Source: an uncultured Bacteroidales bacterium (GTDB lineage Bacteria; Bacteroidota; Bacteroidia; Bacteroidales; UBA932). From it: a stretch of DNA of 64,000 nt. The first letter of the stretch is position 1. Every line of letters begins with the position of its first letter. Positions 1,781 to 44,207 of the stretch are shown one piece after another. Location of the stretch: contig OZ007033.1 of NCBI GenBank assembly GCA_963931625.1, positions 524,881 through 588,880 on the forward strand, in the 5' to 3' direction. The notes under the pieces are model-generated. The model was given only the letters and a program-made list of their open reading frames with translations, was not told where the DNA came from and searched no databases. Both the position numbers and the translations under genes were made by a program.

Positions 1781-1832
1781 CAGACGGCACATATTTTCCC
1801 GAAGGGATGAATTTTACAGAAACCGACAGAAA

Positions 1833-3140: not shown

Positions 3141-3143
3141 GTC

Positions 3144-4478: not shown

Positions 4479-4496
4479 TAAGGACAGAAGGCAAGA

Positions 4497-5879: not shown

Positions 5880-5885
5880 CAGACA

Positions 5886-9222: not shown

Positions 9223-9233
9223 TATAATATATC

Positions 9234-10670: not shown

Positions 10671-10716
10671 AAAATGCCGCTGTCACAATATCACTTCATG
10701 AGATGAAATTTCAAAT

Positions 10717-12071: not shown

Positions 12072-12138
12072 CAGGTTGACGGCATGTCCGGAAGTTCCGG
12101 CATGCGGAAAATCTAATGCACCGCAAGGTGGATATATT

Positions 12139-24348: not shown

Positions 24349-26394
24349 TCATAGCGTCACCGATGTGGTCAGACGGATGTCGCGTGAGGAAGCACCGACA
24401 AGGATGTTGAAGATACCGGGCTCAACAGTGAAGCGATGGAGGTCCATATCATAATATGCAAAGGCCTCCGAATCAAGGATGAACTCGACACTCCTGGACT
24501 CTCCCGGCTCGAGATAAACCTTCTCATAACCCTTCAGTTCTTTCTCGGGACGAGGGACACTTGCCTTCTCATCGTTGACATAAAGCTGCACCACCTCGGC
24601 TCCGGCGCGTTTTCCTGTATTCTTCACGGAGGCAGTCACGCGCACCCTGCCGTCGGGGAGCTTCTCGGCTGCTATGTCCGAGAACTGGAAATCGGTGTAG
24701 GACAGGCCGTATCCGAACGGAAACAGAGGCTCGACACCGGAACGGTCATAGCCGCGGTAGCCAACGAACACGCCCTCAAAATAAGTCACGCGCTCGGGGC
24801 TGTTCCAGAGCCTTTCGGTGTTGCAATAGTAATTATTGAAGACAGGATTGTCCTCCAGCCGGCGCTCTATCGTAATCGGAAGACGGCCGCTCGGATTGAC
24901 CTTGCCTGCAAGAATCTCGGCTATCGCCTTGCCGCCGGCCTGCCCCGGATACCATGCCATGAGCACAGCCTTCGCTTTGGCCAAAACTGGATTGAAATCC
25001 ACACCTCCGCCGGCATTGACCACTACCACCAAATTCGGGTTTATCGATGCAAGGGAGTCTATTTCAGCTATCTGTGCCTCCGGCAATTCAAACGGTCTGT
25101 CGAACCCCTCTCCCTCCAGATGATGATTGAAACCGGCACAATATATCACCGCATCAGCCTTGGCCGCATCATCCGCGGACTTGTAGAACTCACCTACGCC
25201 CTCCGTCACGGAAATTGTATGGAACGGCTCCACAAAGCCGCTGCCGCCGCCAGTAGGGATATTGCCCGAATTCGGGCCGGTAACCATTACTTTTTTCACT
25301 TTTTTCGAAAACGGCAGGAAATTGTCCTCGTTCTCGAGCAGGACAATGGCTTCACGTGCCACATTCAGCGCCGTCAGGTCCGACTCAGGATTGTCCTCCG
25401 GAATGGAAGCGACCTTCTGCTCACGGTCCAGGAAGCCAAACTCTATGAGAGTCTGAAGTATATGCTGGCATTTCTCATCGATGGTCTTTTCCGTCACGGT
25501 ACCTGTCTCTATGGCCTTGCCGAGAGTATTCGGATTCATGAACTGGCCCCAAGACATCTCAAGGTCCAGTCCGTTGTTGGCGGCGCAGATGGATGAATAG
25601 GTAGCCGTCCAGTCCGACATGAAAATGCCTTCGAAACCCCATTCGTCTCGAAGCAAGTCTTTGATAAGAGCCTTGTTCTCAGTCGTGTGCAGTCCGTTCA
25701 CCAAATTGTAGCTCGACATCACGGCGCCCGTATGGGCCACCTGCACAGCCTTGCGGAAAGCCGGGAGATAGATTTCGTTCAGGGTACGCTCGTCTATGTC
25801 GGAAGAGCCGTTGTTGCGGTTATATTCCTGGTTGTTCCCGCAGAAATGCTTGATAGTCGACATCACCCCGGCCGACTGCATTCCCTCAATATATGCCACG
25901 GCAGTCTCGGAAGTCAGATACGGGTCCTCTCCATAATACTCGAAACTCCTTCCGCACTTCGGGAAACGGTAGATGTTCACCCCCGGCCCGAGCATGATAT
26001 GTACGCCGCGGGCACGGGCATCGTTCCCGAGAGACTTTCCGTAAGCATAGGCAAGCTCCCTGTTCCATGTGGCCGCAGTAGCCGCACCGCAAGGGTACAT
26101 CGTGCTTTTGGTATCATTCCTCACGCCCTGCGGACCGTCAGCCATGCGGATACGCGGAATGCCGAGTCTCGGGATTTCACGGATGTAAAACCCGTCGATG
26201 CCACCGATATACGAGAGTTTTTCCTCGAGTGTCATCTTGGACACGAGCTCAGCGGCCCGCTGTTTGGAAGCCTCGGAAATGACATGGGATTTCCCGTTGT
26301 CAGGGGTGTCCGGAGTTCCGGACAATGGCGACGCTGCGGACAGGGCCGCAGGGAAGATGATGGCCGATACGGCCAATGCAAAAAATCTGTTCAT
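24349..26394 (-). CDS. Glycoside hydrolase family 3 beta-glycosidase (beta-glucosidase/xylosidase type), secreted
   Basis: Signal peptide, MADGPQGVR, GRSFEYYGEDP, KHFCGNNQE, nucleophile FMSDW, FPFGYGLSYT, Fn3-like C-terminus. Confidence 0.93.
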   Translation of the reverse strand: MNRFFALAVSAIIFPAALSAASPLSGTPDTPDNGKSHVISEASKQRAAELVSKMTLEEKLSYIGGIDGFYIREIPRLGIPRIRMADGPQGVRNDTKSTMYPCGAATAATWNRELAYAYGKSLGNDARARGVHIMLGPGVNIYRFPKCGRSFEYYGEDPYLTSETAVAYIEGMQSAGVMSTIKHFCGNNQEYNRNNGSSDIDERTLNEIYLPAFRKAVQVAHTGAVMSSYNLVNGLHTTENKALIKDLLRDEWGFEGIFMSDWTATYSSICAANNGLDLEMSWGQFMNPNTLGKAIETGTVTEKTIDEKCQHILQTLIEFGFLDREQKVASIPEDNPESDLTALNVAREAIVLLENEDNFLPFSKKVKKVMVTGPNSGNIPTGGGSGFVEPFHTISVTEGVGEFYKSADDAAKADAVIYCAGFNHHLEGEGFDRPFELPEAQIAEIDSLASINPNLVVVVNAGGGVDFNPVLAKAKAVLMAWYPGQAGGKAIAEILAGKVNPSGRLPITIERRLEDNPVFNNYYCNTERLWNSPERVTYFEGVFVGYRGYDRSGVEPLFPFGYGLSYTDFQFSDIAAEKLPDGRVRVTASVKNTGKRAGAEVVQLYVNDEKASVPRPEKELKGYEKVYLEPGESRSVEFILDSEAFAYYDMDLHRFTVEPGIFNILVGASSRDIRLTTSVTL

Positions 26395-26419: not shown

Positions 26420-28537
26420 TCATAAAACGATTTTCAATGTGCCGCCCTCGCGTACGATGTGACGCTGCGGCGATATGCCGAGCCCCGTGACGAAGACTTC
26501 AAGACTGCCGGAAGGAAGCCTGTGCACCGAAATGTCGAAATCCCGGCCGAATGCCTTGATATGGCGCAGGGCCATCCTGTCCCAGCCAGACGGCATGGAC
26601 GGGGTCATGTCGAACGAATCCAGCCCTGTCGGACGGATGCCGAAAATCCCCTCCGTGACTATGCGGCAGTAAAGCCCGCTCTCGGCGGAAAGATGCCTCT
26701 GCTCACCCTCAGGCCATGCCTCTATCATGTAAGGCACATGGTCGCCGAGAAGTCTCCGGACGGAAAAATCATGCATGAAGGCATAGGCCTCGTCGGGATA
26801 GCCTGCGCAGAAAAGTCCCCGCAGGGCATAAAGCGTGGACCTGTCCCAGAAAGTGCTGTCACCCTGGGCCGTCAGCAGCCCGTTCCGGGTCATCAGTTCC
26901 GGTCCTAGAAGCGCGGCAGCCGTTCCTTCACGATGATAGTCAAGCCCTACCACAAGCGGCAGACATATCCACGAACGCAGGACGTCGTTCCCTTCATAAT
27001 ACCTGTATGTCTCATACCCGGAAACCTCCGCCCCGAAATACTTCTCTATCGCAGTCTTCATCCGTCCGGCTTCGGCACGGCACTCCCTCGAGATGTCCCG
27101 TGGAAGCCCCATGGACTCAGCCAGATACGCCGCGGACAGCAATGCATCGTAATAGAGGCAGGAAGTGCTCAGATTCGCATCCCCGGCAGGGAAACGCCCC
27201 TCAAGTTCGTCAGTATCCGAAGCCACCACCCCGTCGGCCGTCTTCTGTCTGCGGCAATACTCCAGGCACCACTCTATCAAAGGCCACAGCTCCCGTGCAG
27301 TCTCCACCGAGCCGCGTGCCAGCGCATACCGGGACGCGCCGCAGGCTATCATCGCAGCGTCTCCCCTGTCACCGGCACCTGCCCAGATGTCATCACCCTC
27401 CGCTATTATCGAACTCGGTATCGGCCTGTAATCCTCATTCATGAAGCCGCCGAAAAGCCTGTATGAATTCTCGGCAGACAGGTTGCCCTTGCCATATCCG
27501 ACGAAAGGAAAGAACGGATTCACATACTCGCACTGGTCATTGGTCCACATGGCGGCATAGAACACTTCCCCGCCCGGAGCATGCATATAGCCGTTTTTCG
27601 TCCTGATGATGCTCTCGCACGCCCTCAGCTTCGAAAAATGGAATTCGGAGTTCAGGATGCTGTCGGGGGTTTCGAGTACGAGTGCCGGGGCAATGCTGTC
27701 GTCTATGAAAGACCGTCTGGCAGAATATTCCGCTCCGAAATCCGGGGCAATGACGCTGTCCGTCGTTTTCCCTGCCTGGAAAAAGACATCGAAGGAAATC
27801 CGTCCGCCTGGGGCAAGGTAATGATTGCCGGTACCGGCAATGCCTCCCCTTACGTAATAGCTCCCGTCCTTTCCCTTCGCGGGGTCGGTGACGTAACGGC
27901 AGCAATATTCCGGTATATTCACCTCGAAGGCCCTTTTCCCGATGTTCACAAGCTCGTAACGCTCGCAGGTCAGGAGTTTGCCGGACGACGGGAAGAAAGT
28001 CCGCACCATCTCTATCTCCGGCTCATATCCGGCCTTTCTGTCCGCCCCCGAGCGCGTCCAGCCGACATTCCACAGGCTTTTCACCGTCATAATCCCGTCG
28101 AAACGGACCTCCGTGACCTTTTCCCGGTCCAACGACATGCCCTCTACCGACAGGGTCGAAGGTATGTCCGCGGCAGTCCTCCACACCAGGCTGGCATGAG
28201 TGTCGTTCGGGATTCTCCTGAGTGTCGGGAAGACGAGGGAGCGTTCGCAGCGGAAAGCCCCGTCCGCATCTACTCCCCAGCGGAGCACCATGGATACTTT
28301 CTCGCCGGTCATCTCCACATGGTCGTAGTGCGGCACATCATCGGACGGTCTCCAGACTATGGTCCTGCCTCCGTCCGCAAGTGTCCAGCGGGTGGTTTTG
28401 GTCTCCGCAGAGGTTCCGTCCGGCCCGGTCTGCAATGCGGCAGTTCGGGTCCGTGACGGAGCCGCGGAGGAGGTCAGGACAAGGCAGAGGCTTGCCGACA
28501 GAATTATCAGCGTCTTTATTACAGTGTTTTTCTTCAT
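26420..28537 (-). CDS. Secreted six-hairpin (alpha/alpha)6 glycosidase-like protein, family unassigned
   Basis: Signal peptide; YAAMWTNDQCEY, DTDELEGRF, FWDRSTLYAL; C-terminal beta-domain GIRPTG...PSMPSGW typical of inverting GH barrels; PUL context. Confidence 0.65.
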   Translation of the reverse strand: MKKNTVIKTLIILSASLCLVLTSSAAPSRTRTAALQTGPDGTSAETKTTRWTLADGGRTIVWRPSDDVPHYDHVEMTGEKVSMVLRWGVDADGAFRCERSLVFPTLRRIPNDTHASLVWRTAADIPSTLSVEGMSLDREKVTEVRFDGIMTVKSLWNVGWTRSGADRKAGYEPEIEMVRTFFPSSGKLLTCERYELVNIGKRAFEVNIPEYCCRYVTDPAKGKDGSYYVRGGIAGTGNHYLAPGGRISFDVFFQAGKTTDSVIAPDFGAEYSARRSFIDDSIAPALVLETPDSILNSEFHFSKLRACESIIRTKNGYMHAPGGEVFYAAMWTNDQCEYVNPFFPFVGYGKGNLSAENSYRLFGGFMNEDYRPIPSSIIAEGDDIWAGAGDRGDAAMIACGASRYALARGSVETARELWPLIEWCLEYCRRQKTADGVVASDTDELEGRFPAGDANLSTSCLYYDALLSAAYLAESMGLPRDISRECRAEAGRMKTAIEKYFGAEVSGYETYRYYEGNDVLRSWICLPLVVGLDYHREGTAAALLGPELMTRNGLLTAQGDSTFWDRSTLYALRGLFCAGYPDEAYAFMHDFSVRRLLGDHVPYMIEAWPEGEQRHLSAESGLYCRIVTEGIFGIRPTGLDSFDMTPSMPSGWDRMALRHIKAFGRDFDISVHRLPSGSLEVFVTGLGISPQRHIVREGGTLKIVL

Positions 28538-29886: not shown

Positions 29887-30996
29887 TTATTGGAGTCTGG
29901 TTACCCTTACCCAGTCCACGAGCATGTACGACGGACAGTCGTCCGGATTTATCGCGCTGGAGCCGGCAGGACCTACGCTGAGGATGATATGGAAGCCGCC
30001 GCTGAAAGGCCACTGTTTCAGCTCAGTCTCGTTCTCCAAATGCTGGTTCATGTAAGCAAAGGCTATCTGCGGATTCTCCTCGGTGCATCCGTTGGCGTCA
30101 TAGATGGTCACTGCCTCGTCGGTGACATCGGCAGAATAGATGTTATATTCATTCTCGTTATACCCGCTGTATTCACGGTCTACATGGTCGGTATTATGTC
30201 CGGTATAGATGTCAATATAGTACGAATGCAGGGTGTGCTGCACATAATCATGCAGATATGAATGTTCCATGATATCTATCTCGCCGCTTTCCGGCCAGCC
30301 TCCGTAGGTCTGGTACTCCGGCTCCGGCATCATCCAGACAGCCTGGCCGACAGATTCCGCATCATCGACAAACTTGGCGCGGACCTCTATGCGGAACGGA
30401 GCCTGGAACCAGAGTTTGCCCTGTGTCTTGACTCCTCCGGTGAGGCATTCGCCGTCCTGGTTAACTACGGCCAACACCAGGTTGCCGTCCTCGACATAGG
30501 AATGGTCCGGGCTGCCGGACATGGATACCTGCCAGGCTGCCGTGCCTCTCGGAACATAATCCCAGGCGTCAGTGTCCAGACCGTAGGCCTGGTCGAAATC
30601 ATCGAAGAAAAGCACATCGCCCTCTGCTCCGGGGAAACGGTTTTCATAGGCTGAAAGCACTACCGTATAGACGGTCTCCACACCTCCGTATGTAACAGTA
30701 AAATCCTGGATTTCAGGCCAGTTTCCCGTAAGTCCTTTCGGATCGGGAGATATGGTGGCCCCGTCAGCCAGTTTGTAGTCAGCCTTGGAAACCTGTCCGC
30801 CGTACTTTATGGCACCGATGGTGGCTATATGGGTTTCCTGGTCTATGGAGGCGTGGTAGATGCAGTCGCCTACAGTAAGGGTAAAGCGTTCGAGGGGATA
30901 GCCGGCATCGGGTGCGATTCCATTATCTGCACATCCCGCCATAGTCATGGCAGCAAGAGCTGCAGTCAAAAAAATTGTCATTGTCTTTCTTATCAT
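29887..30996 (-). CDS. Glycoside hydrolase family 16 lipoprotein with N-terminal Ig-like domain
   Basis: Lipobox MAGC; FFDDFD, YVEDGNLVL, IEVRAKF, WPESGEIDIMEH (ExDxxE), MLVDWVRV. Confidence 0.9.
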   Translation of the reverse strand: MIRKTMTIFLTAALAAMTMAGCADNGIAPDAGYPLERFTLTVGDCIYHASIDQETHIATIGAIKYGGQVSKADYKLADGATISPDPKGLTGNWPEIQDFTVTYGGVETVYTVVLSAYENRFPGAEGDVLFFDDFDQAYGLDTDAWDYVPRGTAAWQVSMSGSPDHSYVEDGNLVLAVVNQDGECLTGGVKTQGKLWFQAPFRIEVRAKFVDDAESVGQAVWMMPEPEYQTYGGWPESGEIDIMEHSYLHDYVQHTLHSYYIDIYTGHNTDHVDREYSGYNENEYNIYSADVTDEAVTIYDANGCTEENPQIAFAYMNQHLENETELKQWPFSGGFHIILSVGPAGSSAINPDDCPSYMLVDWVRVTRLQ

Positions 30997-31052: not shown

Positions 31053-32615
31053 TTACTCGTACGGAGTGTATTTGAAGGAATCTATGGTCAGGGAGCCGTT
31101 GCCGGTGCCGCCGATGCCGAACTGATACTGGAGCCCCGGGTGAGTGCTGCCGGACTGCCAGATGTCGCCGCCGCACCAGGCGACAGGATCACCAGGCCTG
31201 GCACTCTCTGTCTCAGGATATTTCGTCTTGCTGAACTCGAACACGATCTCATCGTTTATCCACAGTTTCCTGTTCAATATGTTATTCTGCTGATAGCCGG
31301 ACCGTGTATCTGGCGTTATTTCCAGTTTCATTGAGCGCAGTTCTCCGAGTGACACATTATTGCACGGCAGGTTCTTGAAATCAATATCCCATCCGTTGCT
31401 CCAGGCAGTATCGACGCCCCAGTATACTTTGACACCGTTTATGGTCAGATTCCCTTTCAGACCTACCATATTGACAGCAGCATCGCCGCCGAAACGTATC
31501 ATCATTGTGATACCGTCCGCACCCCAGTTGTTGATGTCGAAATATCCGGAAGTGAGATCCACATTCGAGAAGGTCCATTCGAATGTACCGTATTTCCAAT
31601 AGTCCTTCGACTTGACATAGGCCGTCCCGTTGTCGGCAGTCAAGGTGAAGCCGGAAAGATCCGGGGTTCCTACAGGGTCAGCGAAGGAATCCTGGGTGAT
31701 GGTGAGTGTCTGCTCAGTCATCGGGATGTCAGGGTCATCGGACTTGAGGATGATGGTATAAGTCTTGTCGTTGATGTATTTCGAGTAAGGCAGGGTGACT
31801 GTGATGTCGCCGGAAGTCGTACCCTCTATCGGAGAAATGATGACATCCGGGTCGTTGCAGGAAACTGACCACAGCATGGATGCCTCCACATGGAAGGTCT
31901 TGGATTCGCCTCCGTATATGAATGTCCGTGCAGCCTCGTCAGCTTCGCCGAATTGGAGGATAGTGATGCCTTCCTGCGTGATGGTGACTGTCCTGAAGTC
32001 CTCTGCAGTCTCTACGCGGACAGTAGCGGAACGCATGGTTGTCGTGCTCTCCGCCGAGGCAGTAACTGTCACGGCATCCTCCGAGCCGGTTCCGTTGTTC
32101 TGGCTGAATGTAAGCCATGTGGCGGAAGATACTATTTTCCAGTCCTGGTCTGACAGGACGGTGAATGTCACTTCGCCGCCGTTCTGAGGTATCGTACCGG
32201 ATACAGCCGACACAACGAGCTGGCTCATGGCATTCTGGGTGATTTTGACGAGTACGGGCTCTTCAACGCCTTCTGCCATGACGGTGAGGGTGGCTGTACG
32301 CGGCTGGACCACCGTATTGTCTTCTACAGTCACGGTGATGTCCTCCGTCAGGGAACTGGTGGCACTGGCACCCGGAGTAACCGTGCACCAATCCTCGGCA
32401 TCACACTCGATATGCCATGGAGTATTAGAGCTGATGCTGAATATGACAGGATCGGCGGATGCGGAAGCCACAGTATATTCAGATTTGGCATCCACGACTA
32501 TATTCGGCTCCGGATCGGGTTGGGAATCTATCGCCGGTGTCTCATAGCAGCCGGTCAAAACCGCAAATCCTGCGGCAACGCAAACGCCCAGATTGATGAT
32601 TGCATTGGTTTTCAT
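31053..32615 (-). CDS. Surface lipoprotein with tandem BACON domains (putative surface glycan-binding protein)
   Basis: Lipobox LTGC; repeated SNTPWHI/SDQDWKI/ASMLWSV...TQ BACON units; distinct C-terminal beta domain. Start 32615 (MKTNAII) preferred over 32645. Confidence 0.8.
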   Translation of the reverse strand: MKTNAIINLGVCVAAGFAVLTGCYETPAIDSQPDPEPNIVVDAKSEYTVASASADPVIFSISSNTPWHIECDAEDWCTVTPGASATSSLTEDITVTVEDNTVVQPRTATLTVMAEGVEEPVLVKITQNAMSQLVVSAVSGTIPQNGGEVTFTVLSDQDWKIVSSATWLTFSQNNGTGSEDAVTVTASAESTTTMRSATVRVETAEDFRTVTITQEGITILQFGEADEAARTFIYGGESKTFHVEASMLWSVSCNDPDVIISPIEGTTSGDITVTLPYSKYINDKTYTIILKSDDPDIPMTEQTLTITQDSFADPVGTPDLSGFTLTADNGTAYVKSKDYWKYGTFEWTFSNVDLTSGYFDINNWGADGITMMIRFGGDAAVNMVGLKGNLTINGVKVYWGVDTAWSNGWDIDFKNLPCNNVSLGELRSMKLEITPDTRSGYQQNNILNRKLWINDEIVFEFSKTKYPETESARPGDPVAWCGGDIWQSGSTHPGLQYQFGIGGTGNGSLTIDSFKYTPYE

Positions 32616-32685
32616 TGTTTTGTATTTTAGTTTTTTATTCTTCATTCTTTTTTATCGTTATCCCGGACGGCTGTCCTCCTGTCCA

Positions 32686-34377
32686 TCACCATCCCGGATT
32701 CTGAGGCGCAAGATTACTGTTCTTGTACAACTCCGTCTGCGGAATCGGATACAGATACATCCTGTCATTCCACTTGCGTGACTCATAAAGGAATCTCCTG
32801 TATGAATAGGAACTTCCGGAAGTCTGCGTAATTTCCACACCGTAAATGTCAGTCTGGGTATCGGAGCCGATCTTCCATCTGCGCACATCCCAGAAACGGT
32901 GATCCTCGAATGCGAACTCCACACGCCATTCATTCCTCAAGGCTGCAATGAACCCGTCCTTGCCGGAAACGGCCACTTCCGGCATCCCGGCATTGCTCCG
33001 CACCTGGTTCAAGGCCCATCTGGCCGAATAAGGATAGACGGCATCGGTGTAATCCGGGTCTCCAAAAGCCTCGACCATGGACTCGGCATAGGTCAGAAGC
33101 GTCTCGGCGTAACGGTAGACTACCCAGTGATGCTTGTTGGTGACCTGAGCGTCAGGGTCGAAACTGGTACTCTCCTGCACATATTTCCGGAGGAAGTAAC
33201 CTGTTGGAGAGCCGCCGTCGGACACGGCCGCATCGTCACGTCCGCCCTTGTACAGGGCTATGACGGAGCCTTTGAAGGCATCTCCGTTGCAGAGGACGGT
33301 ACGCGCAAACCGCGGATCTCTGTTCAGGTAAGGGCGGGCAGGGTTGAATTCAGGGTCATCGCTCACCCATCCGGAAGCCTCCAGAGTCACGGAATAGCCG
33401 TTCCTGGTCTGGAAGGCATCCACAAGATTCTGGGTAGGGAAGGTGCCCATGGTGACCAAGGAGCCGTTTTTCTGACCCTCGGTGAACCGGATAGGGAAAT
33501 TATACACCTCAAAAGTGGTCGAGTTGTCGTTCTGGCGGGCAAGCACCACTTCCGGGGAAGTCGGATTGTTGCACTTGTCGGCAGGATCGAGCGAGTAAAG
33601 ACCTGTCTGTATCAAGTCGAGGGCCGCAGACGCCGAGCGTTTCCATCTGTCTGTATCCATGGAAGGGTTGTGGAGTTCGCTGGCGGCATATAGGAGGGCC
33701 TTGGATTTCAAAGCCATGGCAAAGCCGCGTGTAATCCTGCCCGTCTCACTGTTCGCGACATCCCTGTAAGTGTCAGGAAGCTCCGGGGCACAGGCGTCAC
33801 ACTCCGACACTATGTATTCCACCACATTGTCGAAAGATGTCTTGGCTATGCTGTTGGCCTGCTCTATGTCCAGTTTCTCCAGAGGCATGGCTATATCGCC
33901 GTACCTTTTGGCAAGCTCGAAGAAAAAGAAGGCCCTGAGTACCCTTGCCTCGTATGTGAAATACTGCATCTGGTCAAGCCAGTTCTGATAATCCGGATCC
34001 TTCTCGAAACGGGAGAAATCCGTAGTCGCGAACGACTGCAGGAATTCGTTGGCAGCCCTGACTCCATAGTACAAGGTCCAGGCGTCATCCACCGTATTCA
34101 GGGCAGTCCAGGTGCCGTTGTTCATATATTGCACCGTTCCGCCGGTGTCGCCGAACTCCGCATCGTCGCTGGCGCAGTCCCGCATTGCCCCGCCTATCGT
34201 CCCGAAATCCTGAGGGATATAGGAATAGACATGTGTAAGCATCTGTTTCGTCTCGTCGAAATAGGAGTAGACATCGTCAAAGGAGCGCAGTCCGTCCGTT
34301 TCGTCGAATTCGAGGTAACTGCAAGAGACGGCAGAGATGGTCGCAATTGTTATCGATATGATTTTCAATGTTTTCAT
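32686..34377 (-). CDS. susD: RagB/SusD-family lipoprotein (second pair)
   Basis: Lipobox AVSC; EARVLRAFFFFEL, YRYAETLLTYAE, EFAFEDHRFWDVRRW, YLYPIPQTE, QNPGW. ORF track starts at 34392. Confidence 0.93.
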   Translation of the reverse strand: MKTLKIISITIATISAVSCSYLEFDETDGLRSFDDVYSYFDETKQMLTHVYSYIPQDFGTIGGAMRDCASDDAEFGDTGGTVQYMNNGTWTALNTVDDAWTLYYGVRAANEFLQSFATTDFSRFEKDPDYQNWLDQMQYFTYEARVLRAFFFFELAKRYGDIAMPLEKLDIEQANSIAKTSFDNVVEYIVSECDACAPELPDTYRDVANSETGRITRGFAMALKSKALLYAASELHNPSMDTDRWKRSASAALDLIQTGLYSLDPADKCNNPTSPEVVLARQNDNSTTFEVYNFPIRFTEGQKNGSLVTMGTFPTQNLVDAFQTRNGYSVTLEASGWVSDDPEFNPARPYLNRDPRFARTVLCNGDAFKGSVIALYKGGRDDAAVSDGGSPTGYFLRKYVQESTSFDPDAQVTNKHHWVVYRYAETLLTYAESMVEAFGDPDYTDAVYPYSARWALNQVRSNAGMPEVAVSGKDGFIAALRNEWRVEFAFEDHRFWDVRRWKIGSDTQTDIYGVEITQTSGSSYSYRRFLYESRKWNDRMYLYPIPQTELYKNSNLAPQNPGW

Positions 34378-34391
34378 CGTATTCTCCACCA

Positions 34392-37169
34392 TTAAAAGTT
34401 GAACTTCAGTCCTACGAAATAAGATCTCAACGCAGGATATGTCCTGCCGCCGATGACCTCGGGATCAAACATCTTGAGATTGTCTATCGAGAAAAGGTTG
34501 GTCCCCTGCACATACAGCTGCATCGCGGCGAATTTTATCATTTCCTTCGGGAAAGTGTAGGCAAAGGTCAGGTTCCTAAGCTTGAGGAACGAACCGTCGC
34601 GGAGCCAAAGGGAGTTGTTCTGGTAGTTGTTCTCGTTCGACTGTGTGGTCAGGCGCGGAATGGTTGCGAAACCGGAAGTCTCGGGTGTCCACGGGATCTC
34701 ATGGTCGAGGAGAGTCTGTGAGACTGTGCCGTTGCTCATCAGCGGCATGTAGAGCGGAGAATTGAGGACATTGACCGTCACTCCGGCCAGACCCTGGAAA
34801 TCTGCGGAGACTTCGAAACCTTTCCAGCCGAAATTCAGCCCGAAACCGAAATAGAAAGCAGGGACGGTGGAATTGTACATCTTTACATAGTCGTATTCGT
34901 TGATGACATTGTCTCCGTTCTGGTCCTTGTATTTCAGGTCGCCAGGACGCACTTCCGAGAATGTCTGGACAGGACTGTTGTTGATTTCCATCTGGTTATG
35001 GAAGATTCCCGTCACCTCCAGCCCGTAGCACTGTCCGATAGGATTTCCCTTCGTATAGAGATAGTCATACGGCTGGTATATCTGGTTTTCATTTACCACT
35101 TCAGTGGAAAGGAAAGAACCGTTCGCATAAATTCCGTAGGAGAAGTCGCCGATTCTGTCTTTCCAGGCCAATGACGCATCTGCTCCGCGGTACTTGTAGA
35201 TGCCTGCACACTGCTGGGCCACATCGATACCGATGATGCCGGAAACATTGGTCGAAGCCACGAGGACATTGCTCCGCTCCTCGAAAAAGCCTTCGGCATA
35301 GAGACTGAGCCTGTTCCCGAATGCCTTGAATTCCGTACCGAATGTCACCTTGCGGAACTTTTCCGGCTCCAGATCCTCTACAGGAAGGGCACTTTCCGTC
35401 ATGCTGTAGTAATGGGCGGCGTTGTCCGTGAAATAGTAGGCATTTCCTCCTATATAGGACTGCCTGAACAGGTCATGGGAAAGGTTGCCGTCCCAGCCCG
35501 AACGGCCGCAGGATGCGAAGACCTTCCATTGGTCTATCCATGAGGCATTTTTCATGAATTCCTCGCCGGAAATGATCCAGGCCGCATTCATCGCAGGATA
35601 GAATCTCATGGCGTCTCCCGGCTTCAGATATGCGGAGCCCGACCAGTCCGTGACGATGCTTGCGGAATATCTGTTGTCGTAGGTATAGGATGCCGTGAAC
35701 AGGGCGGAAAGCCATTTGTTCGACACATTCTGGCCGTTGGCCACATATGACTGCATGTCGTAGATGGCGGCGGCAGACACGGCGTGCCTGCCGAATGTAC
35801 GGGCATAGTCCACCTTGGCCTGCAAATCAGTCCTCATGCCGATGGAATAGAAGCCGTTGCTGTGTCCCAGGGCACGGGAGACCGTACCGGTCGTCTCAGG
35901 GGAGGTGATTACCGTGCCGTCCTCTGACATCGTGGCATTGGAGTCCTCGTATATGAAACTCTTGGAGGTCTCGTCGTACATCCTGCCGGTGTTCTCGAAT
36001 GAAATCAGGACTTCCGCAGCAAGGCCTTCCGTGAGTATGTCGAGATTCTGTCTGAGCGACATGTTGGCCACAACGGTGCCCGTAGTGAAACGGTAGTTGC
36101 CCGTATCGGCAAGGTTGGCCACAGGGTTGGAGGAAGTATATATATCCGTACCGCCCCAGAGTCCGTCATACTGCTTTATTGGATAGGCGGCAGACGGGGT
36201 AGTGTAGACATAGCTCATCGCGACATCTTCACCTCTGGACCTGTTATATTCGCCTATCTTGCCCATGATTCCGAGCTTCAGATGCGTGGTGCGGGTCACT
36301 TCCACATCGAAGTTTGACCTGATGCTGAGGCGCACGTCGGACGGAACGGTGGAATAGCGGGAGTCGGTGTTGAGATTCCTGAACAGTCCGATGTCGTACA
36401 TGTAGTCCACCACCGAATAATAGCGGAATTTCTCTGTACCGCCTTCGAATGTAAGACCGAGACGGTAGTTCGACGTATAGTCCTTGTAGATTTCGTCCCA
36501 CCAGTTCACGTCAGGGTACTCGTAGGGATACTGTCCCGTGCGGAACGCCTCGAGTTCATGGTCGCTGTACCGCGGGGACAGGCCGTCGAGGGTCAGTGCC
36601 TGGTTCAGCGTAGTGGCATAGGTGTATGCATCCGCGAATTCCGGAGACCGGAACTGCGAGTTGATGCCGTACTGGAAATCCGCTCCTACACGAAGCTTGC
36701 CCGGAGTGGCCCTGCGTGTGGTGACAAGGACGACGCCGTTGGCACCCCGCATGCCGTACATCGCCGCAGCTGCAGCATCTGTAAGCACGGCCACAGACTC
36801 TATCTCGGTGGTGGTGATGTCCCTGAGATTCCCCCTCGGGAAACCGTCCACAAGGATCAGCGGAGTCCTTCCATGTATGGACAAGGAGGCAAGGTTGTCG
36901 TAAGTGATGCCGGAGCCCTGATACACATTCAAGCCTGCTATCTGTCCGTACAGGGCCTTGACCGCATCGATATCAGGGGATTTCTCGAACACGCTCCTGC
37001 CGACTCCCCTGTGCGTGAAAGCGCTGCTTTTGCCGGCGACTTCGATACCGTAGCCCAGGCTTATGGTATCAAGCCCGCTCTCTATGGACAAAGTGTCCCT
37101 CGGAGCTGCTGCAGCCGAAAGGGCTGCGGCCAATGATATGATGGTTATATGGAATTTTTTCATATTCAT
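34392..37169 (-). CDS. susC: SusC/RagA TonB-dependent transporter, short form lacking the N-terminal extension
   Basis: Signal peptide leads directly into the plug (YGMRGANGVVLVTT); GDLKYKDQNGDNVIN; C-terminal YFVGLKFNF. Confidence 0.92.
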   Translation of the reverse strand: MNMKKFHITIISLAAALSAAAAPRDTLSIESGLDTISLGYGIEVAGKSSAFTHRGVGRSVFEKSPDIDAVKALYGQIAGLNVYQGSGITYDNLASLSIHGRTPLILVDGFPRGNLRDITTTEIESVAVLTDAAAAAMYGMRGANGVVLVTTRRATPGKLRVGADFQYGINSQFRSPEFADAYTYATTLNQALTLDGLSPRYSDHELEAFRTGQYPYEYPDVNWWDEIYKDYTSNYRLGLTFEGGTEKFRYYSVVDYMYDIGLFRNLNTDSRYSTVPSDVRLSIRSNFDVEVTRTTHLKLGIMGKIGEYNRSRGEDVAMSYVYTTPSAAYPIKQYDGLWGGTDIYTSSNPVANLADTGNYRFTTGTVVANMSLRQNLDILTEGLAAEVLISFENTGRMYDETSKSFIYEDSNATMSEDGTVITSPETTGTVSRALGHSNGFYSIGMRTDLQAKVDYARTFGRHAVSAAAIYDMQSYVANGQNVSNKWLSALFTASYTYDNRYSASIVTDWSGSAYLKPGDAMRFYPAMNAAWIISGEEFMKNASWIDQWKVFASCGRSGWDGNLSHDLFRQSYIGGNAYYFTDNAAHYYSMTESALPVEDLEPEKFRKVTFGTEFKAFGNRLSLYAEGFFEERSNVLVASTNVSGIIGIDVAQQCAGIYKYRGADASLAWKDRIGDFSYGIYANGSFLSTEVVNENQIYQPYDYLYTKGNPIGQCYGLEVTGIFHNQMEINNSPVQTFSEVRPGDLKYKDQNGDNVINEYDYVKMYNSTVPAFYFGFGLNFGWKGFEVSADFQGLAGVTVNVLNSPLYMPLMSNGTVSQTLLDHEIPWTPETSGFATIPRLTTQSNENNYQNNSLWLRDGSFLKLRNLTFAYTFPKEMIKFAAMQLYVQGTNLFSIDNLKMFDPEVIGGRTYPALRSYFVGLKFNF

Positions 37170-37187
37170 GAGTTTGTATTGTTCTGC

Positions 37188-38969
37188 CTACCAGCCTGGA
37201 TTCTGGACTATACCGTAATCCTTGTCGACTTCGGTCTGCGGGAATGCCGCCAGATACCATTTCGTGTCCCAGTAAGTCGCCCAGTTGCGGGTCGCGAGTT
37301 CCGTACGGATGAAAGTATATGAAGCCGGGTTCGTGGAAGTGCCTCCTACCCCCGTGACCTGCAGTCCGTACAGCTTTTTCGTGAAGTCTTCCGACCGGCC
37401 CCATCTCACTAGGTCAAACCATCTGACTTCCTCATAGCCGAGTTCAAGCGCACGCTCTTTCAGAAGCGCCTCCCTGAATCCGGTCCGGTCCAGTCCGGTC
37501 TGGAGGTCAGGCAGTCCGACACGATTTCTGACCGCATTTATCTGCTCATAGGCAGTGGCATCCGGGCCGCCTTTGTATTCGTTGATGGCTTCCGCATAAC
37601 TCAACATCACTTCCGGAAGCCTGAGATACGGCCACTGTACCGGCTTGCCTTCCCTGTCGCTGTCCTGGTTCAGGATGAACTTCATCTGAAAGAAGCCCGT
37701 CCCGACAGTGTAGTTCGGGTGGTTCGTATAGACCGGAGCGACGGAGCCGTCTCTCCAGGTATCACCCGGAACGGCACAGGTTTCGTAAAGCCTCGGCTCG
37801 CGGGTAGGGTTTCCGTCAGCATCGTAGAAAGGCTGGCGTGACGGCTGCTCCCAGTCGAAATCTTCCGGGAAATCGGTGCCGTCATCCCAGGAGAACATGT
37901 TCACATAGTTCAAGGTAGGTCCGGAATACTTGGCCTCCGTCAGGAAATTGTCCAGGATATCGCTGTTGTAGCCCCTGCGGGTGGAGATTAGCACTTCCGT
38001 GCCTCCTCTGTCATAGTATGCGGAACGGAATGCAGCCCGGTACCCTCTGTGGGTGGCCTCAGCAGCCTGTGTCAACTGATATCCGCCATTGGCCGCGAGC
38101 TCATTGAAGAAAGTCTCGCCTGCATCCATCGCCCTTTTCCATCTTTCCGGGTCATAATTCCCGTAGCAGGTGTACTCGTCGGCTTCCGGATGCCAGGGGG
38201 TATCGGAGTTGAATGTAGGGCTTGCCGCCCAGAGCAGGATGCGGAGTTTCAAGCCAAGGGCCCCGGCAGAAGTCATCCTGCCGTTGTCCGTACCGTTGTT
38301 TTTCCAGTTCAGATACGGGGCAGCCTCATCGAGAAGCTGGACTATATAGTCTACGGTTTCCGCAAAGGTGGCGCGAGGGAAATACATCTCCTCATTCGGG
38401 TCCACGGCATGCTTGAGGAGCGGGACTCCTCCCATATACCTCAGCAGTTCGGAATATGCTATGGCTATGACCATCTTTGCCTCAGCCACCTTCCTCTGCC
38501 TGTCGATGGACGAGATGTCGGGAATCCTGTCTGCATTTTCAATGTATATCCAGGCATATCGAATGGCGCTGTATTCATTTTCCTCGCCGAACCTGTATGC
38601 CTCCGTACCCCGGTAGTCAGAGCCGATGTTGCTGCCGTATGTACCGTTGTAGTACAGGTTCACAGGTCCGTCGCTCGGGTTGTTCCTGCGGCTGTAATTC
38701 AGATCGGAGATGGACTCCAATATATTGAGACCGAGCTTGTCGTACGCATGTCCGTTGTCCTTGCCCGTAGGCAGGCCGTACGGCAGATAGGAGTATGCTT
38801 TCGTGAGTACCCTGTCGGCATTTGCAGTAGAGCTGAACATCGTATCCAATGTAGCTCCGGAGCTTTCCGGATGCTCACCGAGGAAGGCATCTCCGAAACG
38901 CAGGTCATAGCATGAGGTCAGCAGCGACATGGCTGCAATAGCCGTGATTATAGATAAATAATGTTTCAT
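37188..38969 (-). CDS. susD: RagB/SusD-family lipoprotein (first pair)
   Basis: Lipobox LTSC; YLRLPEVMLSYAEA, ELGYEEVRWFDLVRW, QNPGW. Confidence 0.93.
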   Translation of the reverse strand: MKHYLSIITAIAAMSLLTSCYDLRFGDAFLGEHPESSGATLDTMFSSTANADRVLTKAYSYLPYGLPTGKDNGHAYDKLGLNILESISDLNYSRRNNPSDGPVNLYYNGTYGSNIGSDYRGTEAYRFGEENEYSAIRYAWIYIENADRIPDISSIDRQRKVAEAKMVIAIAYSELLRYMGGVPLLKHAVDPNEEMYFPRATFAETVDYIVQLLDEAAPYLNWKNNGTDNGRMTSAGALGLKLRILLWAASPTFNSDTPWHPEADEYTCYGNYDPERWKRAMDAGETFFNELAANGGYQLTQAAEATHRGYRAAFRSAYYDRGGTEVLISTRRGYNSDILDNFLTEAKYSGPTLNYVNMFSWDDGTDFPEDFDWEQPSRQPFYDADGNPTREPRLYETCAVPGDTWRDGSVAPVYTNHPNYTVGTGFFQMKFILNQDSDREGKPVQWPYLRLPEVMLSYAEAINEYKGGPDATAYEQINAVRNRVGLPDLQTGLDRTGFREALLKERALELGYEEVRWFDLVRWGRSEDFTKKLYGLQVTGVGGTSTNPASYTFIRTELATRNWATYWDTKWYLAAFPQTEVDKDYGIVQNPGW

Positions 38970-38978
38970 TGCACCTGT

Positions 38979-41900
38979 TTAGAATGTTATGTTCAGCCCG
39001 AAACTGTATATCTTGACAAGAGGATATGCCCCGTTCCTGTCAGTCAGGGCCTCCGGGTCTATAAAATCCAGGCCCGTGAATGTCAGAAGGTTGTATCCTG
39101 AGAAAGAGACATTCAGAGACTTGACGCCTACAGCCTTCAGCCAGCCTTTCCCGGGGAATGTATAGCCGAGGGTAACAGTCTTAAGACGCAGATAGGAGGC
39201 GTCCCTGAGCCAGAGGGTGGAAGGCTCGGAATTCCAGGTCTCGGATGTTTCCGCTGCGCGAGGAAGCGTTCCGTCCTGATGATCCACCGTCCAGCAGTCA
39301 TCATAGAAATATTTGAGAAGGCCGCGGCCGCCGGCGTTGGTGAAAGGTATCCTGTATTCCAGGTCCATCAGCTTGTTCACATTCGTGGCCCCTGTCCACT
39401 GCATGGAGAAATTGAATCCCTTGAAATTGAATCCGGCGTTAAGGCCGAAGACATATTCCGGAATCGTGGAATATCCGGTGACCATCTTGTCATCCCCGTT
39501 TATGATCCCGTCGCCGCTGACATCCTCATACATGGCATCACCGGGATATACCGTCGATGTCGGCTGCGGAAGTTCCGGATTCAGGATCAGGGTGCCGTCC
39601 GGACCTTCAGTGAAATCGCTGTACTGGTACAGGCGGACGAATTTGTACAGCCCGGTATAGCGTCCCACCGAACCTCCTGTCTGGTTCTGCCATGGAAATA
39701 CGCTCTCGACTTCGTCCATATAGATGATCTTGTTGCGGGCAAAGGAAACGTTTGCAGTCGCGAAATATTCGAAGCCGCTTTTAGTCTTGTCGCTCCAGCC
39801 GAGGGACACTTCATATCCATGGTTGTTCACCTCGCCGATATTCAGGGACGGAAGTGTGATCGCTATGATGGACGGAGTGTTGTTTGGCTTCAGCAGGATG
39901 CCGGTACGGTGCTCGAAGAACCAGTCGAAATTCAGGGAAAGCCTGTTTCTGAGGAACTCCGCATCGAGTCCGTAATTCTGCTTGACCGCGGTCTCCCAGG
40001 TCACGCCGTCGTTGCCGACCGTGCCTTCTCCGTATGCCTCGGAGGAATTCGGATTGCTCTCGCCGAAATTGTAGTTTCCGTTGGAGCCCCATGTGGTCGG
40101 CATATACATGAATCTCGTGGTGCCGAGGTCGTTGCCGACTTTCCCGAGAGAAGCCCTCAGCTTAAGGTAGCTGATGAAATTCTGGCTCTCCATGAAAGGC
40201 TCTTCGCTGATGACCCAGCCTATAGAGCCCGATGGGAAGGCACCGTAACGGGTCTTGCCCGGGGCGAAATTCTCCGAACCGTTGTAGCCGATGCTCACAT
40301 CGGCAAGATATTTCCCCTTGTAGTTATATGTGACACGGCCGACGAAGCCCACATAGCTGTGCGGAATATACTGGTAGGAGGAGGCGTCGCCCGTACTGTA
40401 TCGGGGATAGTAGTCACGGGACTGGTTGTAGAGGAACATGGCCGATACCTTGTGTTCGCCTTTCGGGCCGAATGCCCTGTCCCAGTTCAGTTTTCCCTCA
40501 ATGTACCAGTTCCTGTCACGCCCGTTCTCCTCCGAATACCGAAGGATGTCGTCTGTACCGTCAGGCACCAGGATTATGCTCTTGTCATAGTCCGGATCGG
40601 TCATGGGCTTGTCCGGGTCGTCATAGAACGAGGCGTAATATATACGCTGCAGCTCGGTACCCCAGGACTCCCTTTTCTTGTGGGTGTTGAAGTTGTTGTC
40701 GTACGCCCCTTTCAGCGTAAGGGAAAGCCCGTCGGTAATGAAGTCCAGACGCTGGTTTATCTCCACATCGATGTTGAGAGTGGTGTTGTAGTGCTGTTCA
40801 TAGCCGTAGCCCATGAATGTGAAGTAGCCGTCCCTGCCCAGCTCTATCCCCGTCGGCACGGACTCCTCCGGGACCAGGGTCCTGCGTCCGTTTATCAGAC
40901 CGGGACTGACCAAAGGCACTGTCCAGATGGTAATGGAATTCCACTCCGAGCCATCGATCTTTACCGAAAGCGGGGACTGCTGCTTGCCGACATAGCCTCC
41001 GATGTTGAACTTCATGGTGGTGCTCGGTGAGAGACTGAAATCGAGGTTTGCGCGGTAGTTGTACCTGTTGTAGCTGTAGTTGTTGTTATAAGGAATGCTC
41101 TCGACCTGCTTCAGTACACCGTTCTGGTAGAGGTAGCCCATTGACACGAAATACCGGGCATTCTTGCTGCCTCCGGAGATGTTGATGTTGTTCTTCGTCT
41201 GGACGAAGACATCGTTGAGCACCACCTCCCTCCAGTTCACATTCGGATAGAAAAGAGGGTCGGAACCTGTCCGGTAGGCCTCTATGGCATAGTCGGTGAA
41301 ATATTTCCTGGCGTCTGTCTCCCTGTCGTTGCGCATCTTCATGTTCCAGAAGGTGGCGTATTCGTAGCTGCCGACCTGTTCCACCATGGCGCACGGCTGC
41401 TGCAGACCGGTGTTCGTACTGACCGAGATGCTAGGCTTTCCTTCCTGTCCTCTTTTTGTGGTGATGAGGATGACTCCGTTGGCCCCCCTCACGCCGAAGA
41501 CTGCCGTGGAGGCTGCATCCTTAAGTATGGAAAAATTCTCGATTTCGTTAGGATCTATCTGGGAAAAGTCGCGTTCGACTCCGTCGACCAATACAAGAGG
41601 CTTCGAAGAGGAGCTTGACAACGAACCGACTCCCCTGATGTAAATGTCCGCAGCGTCTTCACCAGGCTGTCCTGTCGTCTGGACAGTCGCTACGCCGGGC
41701 ACGCTGCCCGCCAATACATTTGTGATACTCGACACCGGAGGTTTTATGAGTTCCTTGGTGTTCACCACGGCCAACGAGCCGGTTATGGTCGCCTTGGTCT
41801 GCGTACCGTACCCGATGACGACCACTTCATCGAGATGCTGCATGTCTTCATCAAGGGTGATGGACCTGACCGCCGGCGAGGATGCCTCCATCTCCACATC

Positions 41901-42435
41901 CTTGAATCCAAGGCATGAAAACAGGAGCACAGCCCCGGGATCGGAAACAGCCATCGACCAGTTGCCGTCAAAGTCTGTCGTCACGCCGTTGTCCGTACCT
42001 TTTTCAAGGATGAACGCCCCCACCACCGGCTCCCCTTCCGGATCTTTTACACATCCATGGACAACCACGGGCTTCCCCGGTTCTTTATAGGATGCTCCCT
42101 TGTCCTTTTTCGTCTTTTTCCACACGGTTATCTGCCGGTTACGGACATTGTATTCCGTTCCGGGCCCGAGAATACTGTCGAGGACGGCATTTATCGAAGC
42201 ATCCTCAAAAGAAACTGTGACCTTCTTTTCCATATCCAGGGCATCATCCCTGAATATGAAACGATAGCCATAATCTTTTTCAAGTTGCGATATGACCTCC
42301 TTCAGCGGCCGGTCCACGGCCCTGACATTTATAGCTTCCCCCCCCCTGTGCGAAAATGCCGGTCGGGAGCAGCATAAATGCAGCCAACAATAACATTGCA
42401 AGCCGGTGCCTGCAATACAGAAAATTTTTTAACAT
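38979..42435 (-). CDS. susC: SusC/RagA TonB-dependent transducer (STN signalling domain + NTE), interrupted by a frameshift at a G9 tract
   Basis: ATG 42435 reads MLKNFLYCRHRLAMLLLAAFMLLPTGIFAQ (signal peptide) but stops at TGA 42280-82. The body (EAINVRAVDRPLKEVISQLEK..., FGVRGANGVILITTK, YSFGLNITF) lies in the +1 frame; G8 would join the two parts. Confidence 0.88.
42338..42346 (-). repeat. G9 homopolymer at the susC frameshift
   Basis: Forward C9 at 42338-42346. Confidence 0.9.
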
Positions 42436-42488: not shown

Positions 42489-43430
42489 TCATTTCGCCCT
42501 CACCGATACCTCTGTTCCGGAAATCTGCCGTATTTCAACCGGAACCATCATCGAAATCGTGTTCAATGCCGTTCCAAGACCTTCGTCGAGCACCAGCTTG
42601 CCGTTGACCGTGATCCCTTCAAAGTCCTTTTCATCCCATAATATCGTTACGCCGTAATACAGCCTGAGCCTGCGGAATATGTCGGACACGGATGCCTGCC
42701 TAAGCATTATATATCCTTTTGTCCATGATGTATAGTCTTCGGGGTCAATATCTTCCACCGTGCCGGTGCCAGACTCCGTGTCATAGACGAACCTCTGGGA
42801 CGGCTCCAACCTCACATTCTCCTCCGAATCCGCACCTCCGGCTTCAACAACCCCATCCACAAGCACCACGGACTGGACATCATCGTATGCAGTCACATTG
42901 AAGACTGTCCCAAGCACCCGGACTTCCATACCCTGTGGTGTCTGCAGCACGAACGGCCTGTCTTCGTCATGCGCCACATCGAAATATGCCTCCCCTTCAA
43001 GCCTTACGTGTCTTTCGGTTTTGCCGCAGTCTACAATCTCAAGTCTTGACCCGGAATTCAACCTGACCTTCGTCCCGTCATTCAGAACCGTTTCGGTCTG
43101 ATGCCCGAACGGCGCCGACAGGGAAGCAATGGCCAGATCCTCTGCCTGTCCTCCGTCATCCGGTCTGAAGAACCAGACCCCCACGGCCACTGCAGCAGCT
43201 GCTGCGGCACTTCCAATCCATCCGATTATCCTGTGCCACTTTCCGCTTCCTGCCGGGGCCGCGGCAACTTCCTCATCCGAAAGAAGCAGGGCCTCGTATA
43301 TTCTCCGGAAAGCCTGCAGCTCTTTTCTGTTGGCATCATCGGACTTTGCCCATTCCATAATCCTGAGTCTCTCTTCCAAAGTAGCCTCGCCTCTCAGATA
43401 TTTCAATATCTGTCCATAATCATTCTCCAT
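42489..43430 (-). CDS. FecR-family anti-sigma factor
   Basis: N-terminal ILKYLRGEAT..E, one TM helix, LNDGTKVRLNSGS, LEGEAYFDV, VLGTVFNV, SWTKG. Start moved to 43430 (MENDYG). Confidence 0.92.
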   Translation of the reverse strand: MENDYGQILKYLRGEATLEERLRIMEWAKSDDANRKELQAFRRIYEALLLSDEEVAAAPAGSGKWHRIIGWIGSAAAAAAVAVGVWFFRPDDGGQAEDLAIASLSAPFGHQTETVLNDGTKVRLNSGSRLEIVDCGKTERHVRLEGEAYFDVAHDEDRPFVLQTPQGMEVRVLGTVFNVTAYDDVQSVVLVDGVVEAGGADSEENVRLEPSQRFVYDTESGTGTVEDIDPEDYTSWTKGYIMLRQASVSDIFRRLRLYYGVTILWDEKDFEGITVNGKLVLDEGLGTALNTISMMVPVEIRQISGTEVSVRAK

Positions 43431-43540
43431 AACGGCTGTCTTTTTCGGGTAAAACAACAATAAGTCCCTCCAGAACGGAAAGACCCTAAACATTTTTGAA
43501 AAAATTTCTGATTTTTATGAAAATTTGTCACTGAAGGCTG

Positions 43541-44107
43541 TCACAGACCGAGGAAAACGGCTATCAAAGGCAGATAGTCCTTCAGCGATACCCTCAAGGC
43601 TTTCAATGCTTTGGATATATGGTATTCGACCGTTTTCTCCGTAATGCCCATCTTCTCCGCAATCTCCTTGTTGGTCATTCCGTTGAAACGGCTCAGACTG
43701 AAGACACGACCCGTCTTCCCGCCGAGTGAATCAAGGGTGTCATGCAGTATCTTCTGCACATCCCCGGCAAACAATGTATGCGGATCACAGGATTCGAGAG
43801 CCTCTATCCTGAACTTGAGTTCATCCCTGATGTCCCTGCTCATGTCATCATGGACCTTTGACTTCAGGCTCTCATGCCGGAGATGCCTCAGCGCCTTGTT
43901 CCGTATGACCGAAAAAAGAAACGGAAGGACCATCTGTATCTCTTCACCTGCCGAACGGCGCTCCCAATACAAAGACAATGCTTCCGCCGCTATCGATTCC
44001 GCAACATTCTGATCAAATACATAAGACCTGGCGAAAAGGACGCAGCGCCTGAAATAGTTGGAATAATTGTCTTCGAAGCCTGACTTGTCATTCTTTCTCC
44101 GTATCAT
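43541..44107 (-). CDS. ECF sigma-70 factor (Bacteroides expansion type)
   Basis: Region 2 (FSVIRNKALRHLRHE) and region 4.2 (SRFNGMTNKEIAEKMGITEKTVEYHISKAL). Start 44107 lies downstream of a consensus promoter. Confidence 0.93.
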   Translation of the reverse strand: MIRRKNDKSGFEDNYSNYFRRCVLFARSYVFDQNVAESIAAEALSLYWERRSAGEEIQMVLPFLFSVIRNKALRHLRHESLKSKVHDDMSRDIRDELKFRIEALESCDPHTLFAGDVQKILHDTLDSLGGKTGRVFSLSRFNGMTNKEIAEKMGITEKTVEYHISKALKALRVSLKDYLPLIAVFLGL

Positions 44108-44127
44108 CGTCCATTTTTTCAGAGATA

Positions 44128-44158
44128 CAAATGTAGTAATTTCAACATTGTCTGCAAA
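44128..44158 (-). promoter_or_regulatory. Consensus sigma-A promoter TTTG-N19-TACATTTG for the ECF sigma gene
   Basis: Forward CAAATGTA at 44128-35 and CAAA at 44155-58. Confidence 0.7.
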
Positions 44159-44207
44159 CCGCATCACACATGACATCGCTCTGTACCGGCATCACCTGCA
44201 CCCATAG

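Follow-up and report, generated by a model that had tools for sequence, protein, structure and literature searches.

Organization of the locus and reading frames of susC

The window (the whole 64,000-nt stretch of DNA analyzed here, which originates from an uncultured Bacteroidales bacterium of the chicken gut) contains a PUL built around a gene encoding a SusC/RagA-type TonB-dependent transporter. The features distinguished within this locus, all of them on the minus strand, are as follows.

24349..26394 (-): GH3 glycosidase (beta-glucosidase type), likely the distal end of the PUL
29887..30996 (-): GH16 beta-glucanase-like enzyme, DUF4971 at its N-terminus
31053..32645 (-): BACON-domain protein, likely surface glycan-binding
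32686..34392 (-): second SusD-like protein
34392..37169 (-): second SusC-like TonB-dependent transporter, lacking a signalling domain (Pfam)
37188..38969 (-): SusD, partner of the SusC carrying the poly-G tract (Pfam)
38979..42337 (-): SusC/RagA TonB-dependent transporter body (CarboxypepD_reg, Plug, beta-barrel), 1118 open codons past the tract
42123..42314 (-): STN/FecR_C-like N-terminal signalling domain of SusC, residues ~41-104 of the repaired protein
42280..42282 (-): premature TGA, at which the product of the OFF allele ends after 51 aa
42338..42346 (-): poly-G tract GGGGGGGGG (C9 on the plus strand), codons 30-33
42349..42435 (-): ATG 42435 and 29-codon signal peptide MLKNFLYCRHRLAMLLLAAFMLLPTGIFA, in a frame different from that of the SusC body in the window allele
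42489..43493 (-): FecR-type anti-sigma factor (Pfam)
43541..44176 (-): ECF-type sigma factor (Pfam)

FecR-type anti-sigma and ECF sigma factor genes are located upstream of susC and a SusD gene downstream of it. The sigma and anti-sigma factor genes adjoin susC in the same order in all related loci, and the other PUL genes around susC are intact. Both the ECF-sigma/anti-sigma control of the locus and its two SusC/D pairs are unusual. The cargo of the locus also includes a metallophosphoesterase, while a 705-aa ORF (26420-28537) gave neither a Pfam nor a PDB sequence match. The PDB matches of the GH16 protein are Bacteroides and laminarinase GH16 enzymes. The presence of GH16 and GH3 enzymes suggests that the substrate of the PUL is probably a beta-glucan.

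Differences among related loci in the length of SusD, sigma factor and FecR proteins (e.g. 593, 580 and 553 aa) were considered as possible further switches, and were found to reflect start codons assigned by gene callers on identical DNA. At the left end of the window there are a Mur-ligase gene and other genes of the cell-wall/division type (203-12003), followed by a glutamyl/glutaminyl-tRNA synthetase gene (12076-13794); this context is chromosomal and not that of a mobile element.

CarboxypepD_reg, Plug and barrel domains were identified by Pfam in SusC and, together with the adjoining SusD gene, place it among the SusC/RagA transporters. The best PDB sequence matches of the repaired protein (i.e. 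with the frame restored at the tract) are the SusC homologues 8aa4 and 5t3r. Its N-terminal domain was recognized by Pfam as FecR_C (30.5 bits; cutoff 24.4), the STN score of 23.5 bits being below the cutoff of 28.4, and PF07660 (STN) is a precomputed assignment on close orthologues of this SusC. The N-terminal segment of the protein, including the residues before Met14, is retained in orthologues.

Translation from ATG 42435 on the minus strand yields MLKNFLYCRHRLAMLLLAAFMLLPTGIFAQ, followed by the codons of the nine Gs. A positively charged n-region and a hydrophobic core are recognizable in this peptide, whose end is of the IFA|Q cleavage type, and the poly-G tract encodes the Gly residues located directly past the signal-peptidase site (..IFA|QGG..). 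In the window allele translation stops at the TGA after 51 aa. The first-pass annotation had pointed to this start codon, signal peptide, G9 run and stop codon, and each of them was reproduced. Its statement that G8 or G11 restores the SusC frame was confirmed by computing the frames: deletion of one G (G8) produces a 1151-aa ORF reading ..FAQGGEAINV.., and insertion of two Gs (G11) an ORF of 1152 aa. The ORF assigned mechanically from TTG 42401, which the same annotation had judged implausible, consists of 1140 aa and begins with MQCYCWLHLCCSRPAFSHRGGEAINV / MQCYCWLHLCCSRPAFSH; it has neither a signal peptide nor any other export signal, which upholds that judgement.

By frame analysis, the G9 allele of the window is thus in the predicted OFF register and G8 or G11 would be ON, as had been proposed. 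The tract has several features of a contingency locus: it is a poly-G run of at least 7 nt within the reading frame, close to the 5′ end and immediately past the signal-peptide codons, and its length toggles the product between 1151 aa (G8), 51 aa (G9) and 1152 aa (G11). The cut-off applied to G/C tracts by PhasomeIt is likewise ≥7 (PMC6321876). The same tract-length logic of ON and OFF was found in all 36 related loci.

Runs of nine Gs are not rare as such, since at least one G9 was present in 51 of 100 dinucleotide-preserving shuffles of the window, with an expected frequency of about one per shuffled window. The significance of the tract lies in its position, conservation and variability, not in its mere presence. 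GGG accounts for only 18% of the Gly codons in the genome, and among the other Gly-Gly pairs encoded by the window ORFs just one in 161 is written GGG-GGG.

The window contains only one other long run, G8 at 60782-60789 (minus strand, within ORF 58920-60929), which served as a control. It encodes ..PEEGGEY.. in frame, at around codon 47 of a lipoprotein that contains BACON and OB-fold domains. Its length was constant in three runs (X2-X4); in X4 it is broken by a substitution at 60783, and the run is not conserved.

Tract length among strains of the species

Tract alleles were read from independent assembled contigs, including those of 20 public sequencing runs of chicken, bird or faecal metagenomes. 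The exact 1140-aa ORF of the window was found on 12 contigs. The four of these that were compared all carry G9 and show no difference from the window over 8.4 kb, and their names follow four different assembler styles (k87_, s..ctg..l, tig and contig_).

Among the 20 runs, 16 had an ON allele and four an OFF allele. The ON alleles comprised G8 in 14 runs (X1, X4-X12, X18, X20, X25 and X26) and an 11-nt in-frame variant in two (X15 and X28). G9 (OFF) was detected in runs X2, X3, X17 and X27, which represent three studies, at a depth of up to 21.7. A divergent strain, L026, known from a 19x SPAdes contig, also has G9. The 11-nt variant, GGAGGGGGGGG on the gene strand at 42337-42346 (CAG GAG GGG GGG GAA), adds one codon (Q-E-G-G-E), and may have been derived from a G11 ON allele through a G-to-A change.

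Comparison of SNP haplotypes placed G9 on at least four backgrounds, i.e. the window haplotype and those of X2/X3, X17 and X27, with L026 as an additional one. The G9 haplotype of X2/X3 differs by a single SNP from the G8 haplotype of X1, and on the haplotype network the G9 backgrounds are interspersed with those of G8 and of the 11-nt ON variant. The occurrence of G9 on several interleaved haplotypes indicates homoplasy, that is, recurrent change at one site. Across five haplotypes, 38-98 SNPs apart, the tract is the sole internal indel in 8.4 kb. Close strains thus differ recurrently in tract length, as is characteristic of contingency loci.

A homopolymer sequencing error had been named in the first-pass annotation as the main alternative, to be recognized by uniform G8 in accurate reads. 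At the level of contigs the tract was not uniform: G9 was present in the four independent runs listed above, in the divergent strain and in the four window-strain assemblies. When 20 kb of the window were compared with four other assemblies, only one other homopolymer indel was noted, which indicates that the window is not riddled with such errors. This indel affects an intergenic T6 (32631-32636) between the genes of the second SusD and the BACON protein; the corresponding run is T5 in all of X1-X4.

Two assembly features were observed in individual runs. In X20, two contigs end exactly across the tract with a 30-nt overlap (42326-42355), a branch of the assembly graph that hints at mixed tract lengths, or mixed strains, in the sample. 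In X3, one contig joins position 33432 to 40265 and skips 6832 nt, from the second SusD to the first SusC; the shorter side of this join is only 22 nt long, and the contig may be chimeric or represent a rearranged variant.

The poly-G run in sister lineages and alternative explanations

The repaired SusC has a clade of orthologues with 83-90% protein identity, all of which read ..FAQGGG.. past the signal peptide. Within Candidatus Cryptobacteroides, a genus of the chicken gut, a pure run of G8-G11 is retained at the same codons by five or more sister lineages. Overall, conservation of the pure run extends to at least six lineages. The first-pass annotation had suggested that tract length be compared across relatives, and this comparison revealed a variable run at the same place, with OFF alleles in most lineages. 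The alleles recorded were as follows.

Lineage A (including Candidatus Cryptobacteroides intestinipullorum), CAA-G9-TAC: ON G9; OFF G10
Lineage B, CA-G9-TGAC: ON G9; OFF G8
Lineage C, CA-G9-TAAC: ON G9; OFF G8 (three loci) and G10 (three samples)
P0002 lineage (L035): ON G10; no OFF allele seen
P0004 lineage (L033): G10 would be ON; OFF G11
E17 bin237 (L032): G9 would be ON; OFF G8

The in-frame length is therefore lineage-dependent (8, 9 or 10), and most lineages have OFF alleles of +1 or -1. The OFF state was found in three of five GTDB species-representative MAGs. Assembly coverage was low (4-9x) for several of these OFF alleles. An alignment of orthologues used as the query was successful in scanning GTDB genomes, in which the N-terminus of 120 aa gave no match; JGI metagenome contigs, scanned for the tract flanks with a variable gap, gave none either. 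The Gly run is absent from orthologues of ≤74% identity, which have AQSRD or GQTGD in its place.

Between lineages, 33-58% of the 4-fold degenerate sites are different. GGG GGG forms the two central codons in all lineages with the tract, and the run is completed by differing flanking codons, its make-up varying between CAA+GGG GGG GGG, CAG GGG GGG GGT and CAG GGG GGG GAA. In all 13 OFF loci, 1118-1121 codons are open past the tract and secondary lesions are absent; the SusC body of the window shares 99.7% protein identity with ON strains, and on the haplotype network OFF alleles alternate with ON alleles. The intact downstream frames of all OFF alleles argue for recent or reversible events rather than decay. 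In one ENA analysis (ERZ24773229), two Cryptobacteroides species (L018 and L028) were both OFF, with G10 and G8, respectively; this anecdotal co-occurrence would fit a common selective pressure in that host.

Several other explanations of these data have to be weighed. Homopolymers are the classic site of indel errors, the window-strain contigs carry name styles of long-read assemblers, and some OFF alleles of the relatives stem from the 4-9x assemblies; these circumstances would suit a sequencing or assembly artefact in which the true length is G8 everywhere and G9 and the other lengths are miscalled. We consider this very improbable, because the same G9 was recovered in four assemblies of differing name styles, in run-level contigs of three further studies and in the 19x SPAdes contig, because the intergenic T6/T5 difference is the only other homopolymer indel in 20 kb, and because the control G8 run was constant in length. 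Recurrent length variation among strains and sister species points instead to a real slippage-prone switch. It might also be supposed that the G9 allele is not truly OFF. Long homopolymers can make RNA polymerase and the ribosome slip, and transcriptional slippage or +1 frameshifting on GGG-G would then restore SusC, with the tract tuning its expression; an extra or missing Gly is tolerated at this position, as the 11-nt in-frame variants demonstrate. Such slippage usually amounts to a few percent at most, which would make G9 a leaky OFF state and not an ON state, and the prevalence of the ON length in the majority of unbiased samples suggests that the frame matters, so this explanation also seems quite improbable. 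Finally, the window gene is frameshifted, as expected of a PUL transducer being lost from this strain, but the probability of a decaying pseudogene is close to negligible given a single lesion located at the tract, the 1118 open codons and near-identity to ON strains beyond it, and the intact state of all neighbouring PUL genes.

A more serious alternative, which we nevertheless regard as unlikely, is that the tract is an accidental hotspot and the OFF alleles are recurrent losses, mildly deleterious or neutral, i.e. “mutation-prone adaptive variation” and not an evolved reversible switch. This distinction has been drawn for homopolymers of modest mutation rate (PMC11868660), and in many hosts the bacterium may do without the PUL. 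The persistence of a pure run in at least six lineages despite near-saturated synonymous divergence argues against it, as does the rebuilding of the run with different codons and at different ON lengths. Synonymous GGG-to-GGC/GGA changes should remove a costly run that is merely accidental, and in one strain the control tract was indeed broken. Moreover, secondary lesions were found in none of the OFF alleles, and the OFF state is frequent both among the runs (4/20) and among the species representatives (3/5).

An invertase-type switch, a SusC shufflon and an invertible promoter were also considered and rejected: the genes neighbouring susC include no recombinase gene, and the inverted repeats near the locus are only short and imperfect (16-26 nt, 75-94%), none of them convincing.

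A putative slippage switch and related systems

The observations described above are probably best explained by the tract being a hypermutable homopolymer contingency locus within the 5′ end of a gene that encodes the signal-transducing SusC of an ECF-sigma/anti-sigma PUL. According to this model, slipped-strand mispairing at replication would gain or lose one G. As the sequence shows, in G8, G11 or 11-nt alleles the signal peptide is joined to the transporter (ON); in G9 translation ends at 51 codons and the transporter body is left without an export signal (OFF). By analogy with BT1042, neither import of the glycan nor signalling to the anti-sigma factor would occur without the transducer, sequestration of the sigma factor would persist, and the locus of ~20 kb, with its two SusC/D pairs, BACON protein, GH16 and GH3, would remain uninduced. 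Disruption of the signal-transducing susC gene BT1042 of Bacteroides thetaiotaomicron does abolish PUL induction (PMC2709373). On the strength of this analogy we infer that G9 would silence the whole PUL, the tract acting as the “master switch” suggested in the first-pass annotation. The OFF state could be leaky through low-level transcriptional or ribosomal slippage, and such RNA- or ribosome-level events, together with polarity on downstream genes, may modify the outcome.

Conservation of the tract suggests that selection maintains a long pure run in the genus, so that populations would always contain both ON and OFF cells. Such bet-hedging might be directed against, for example, the cost of expression, targeting of the surface receptor by phages or antibodies, or a fluctuating substrate. 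To qualify as true phase variation, a homopolymer hotspot has to switch both rapidly and reversibly, and in mismatch-repair-proficient bacteria mutation of G8-G9 tracts is possibly too slow for classical phase variation (PMC11868660, PMC6321876).

The closest parallel in architecture is found in the HmbR/HpuAB receptors of Neisseria meningitidis, in which a poly-G run of ~8-11 nt within the ORF of a TonB-dependent receptor also sets ON or OFF by its length modulo 3, and natural populations likewise mix ON and OFF isolates. The Neisseria variants in which effective and absolute tract length differ (G-to-A in the run; PMC3786947) are mirrored by the allele of X15 and X28. The two systems differ in phylum (Pseudomonadota versus Bacteroidota) and in cargo, which is haem(oglobin) in Neisseria and a glycan here, and Neisseria has proven switching rates and phenotypes, the switch in the window being a putative one. 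Unlike the Neisseria receptors, the receptor described here is predicted to double as a trans-envelope sensor, and its switch should therefore act on the whole locus.

BvgS of Bordetella pertussis is an inner-membrane two-component sensor kinase that controls the virulence regulon. Frameshifting in the poly-C tract of bvgS (listed in PMC11868660) resembles the proposed SusC switch in that a change in a signalling protein switches a set of genes and not a single product, but the protein is a sensor kinase rather than an outer-membrane transporter, and the target is a virulence regulon rather than a nutrient locus.

Heterogeneity of SusC is also the outcome of the invertase and shufflon systems of Bacteroides SusC/SusD loci (the Tsr0667 loci of B. 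fragilis; BT1040-BT1046 of B. thetaiotaomicron). The B. thetaiotaomicron shufflon relocates the SusC N-terminus, comprising the signal peptide and sometimes the STN domain (10.1101/2025.06.24.661302), and thus affects the same part of SusC that is uncoupled by the tract in the window; BT1042, located in the shufflon locus BT1040-BT1046, is itself a signal transducer (PMC2709373). These systems depend on site-specific recombination, inverted repeats and a linked recombinase, in contrast to the 1-nt slippage proposed for the window. The trio of ECF sigma factor, FecR-type anti-sigma factor and transporter, here with a putative signalling domain, is shared with FecA-FecR-FecI of Escherichia coli and BT1042/BT1052/BT1053 of B. 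thetaiotaomicron, and its order in the window is that of Bacteroides PULs. No slippage tract is known from either of these two trios. A limited literature search, in itself weak evidence of absence, turned up no account of SusC being switched by a homopolymer in Bacteroidales. Simple-sequence contingency loci are a known kind of element; what appears to be new here is the phylum and the functional context.

The tract also leads to systematic mis-annotation by gene callers and MAG pipelines. OFF alleles have been deposited as “proteins” with odd N-termini of 1140, 1150, 1128, 1111, 1109 and 1088 aa (P0001 cluster), and the ON allele is called by gene callers from Met14 (1138 aa). In addition, polishing tools may “correct” OFF alleles. 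As metagenomes reveal tract length directly, the ON/OFF status of this locus could be followed in flocks, where diet (beta-glucans from cereals or yeast), phage load and age are possible covariates.

Phase variation in gut Bacteroidales has so far been explained almost wholly by invertases and shufflons. The locus described here suggests that homopolymer slippage can fulfil an equivalent role in the corresponding position, at the N-terminus of a signalling SusC; the tract has been kept across the genus. Whether Bacteroidales thus phase-vary by simple-sequence slippage besides DNA inversion, with a selected poly-G run making an ECF-sigma glycan locus stochastically inducible or non-inducible, possibly under pressure from phages or antibodies, is a broader proposition that we regard as evenly balanced.
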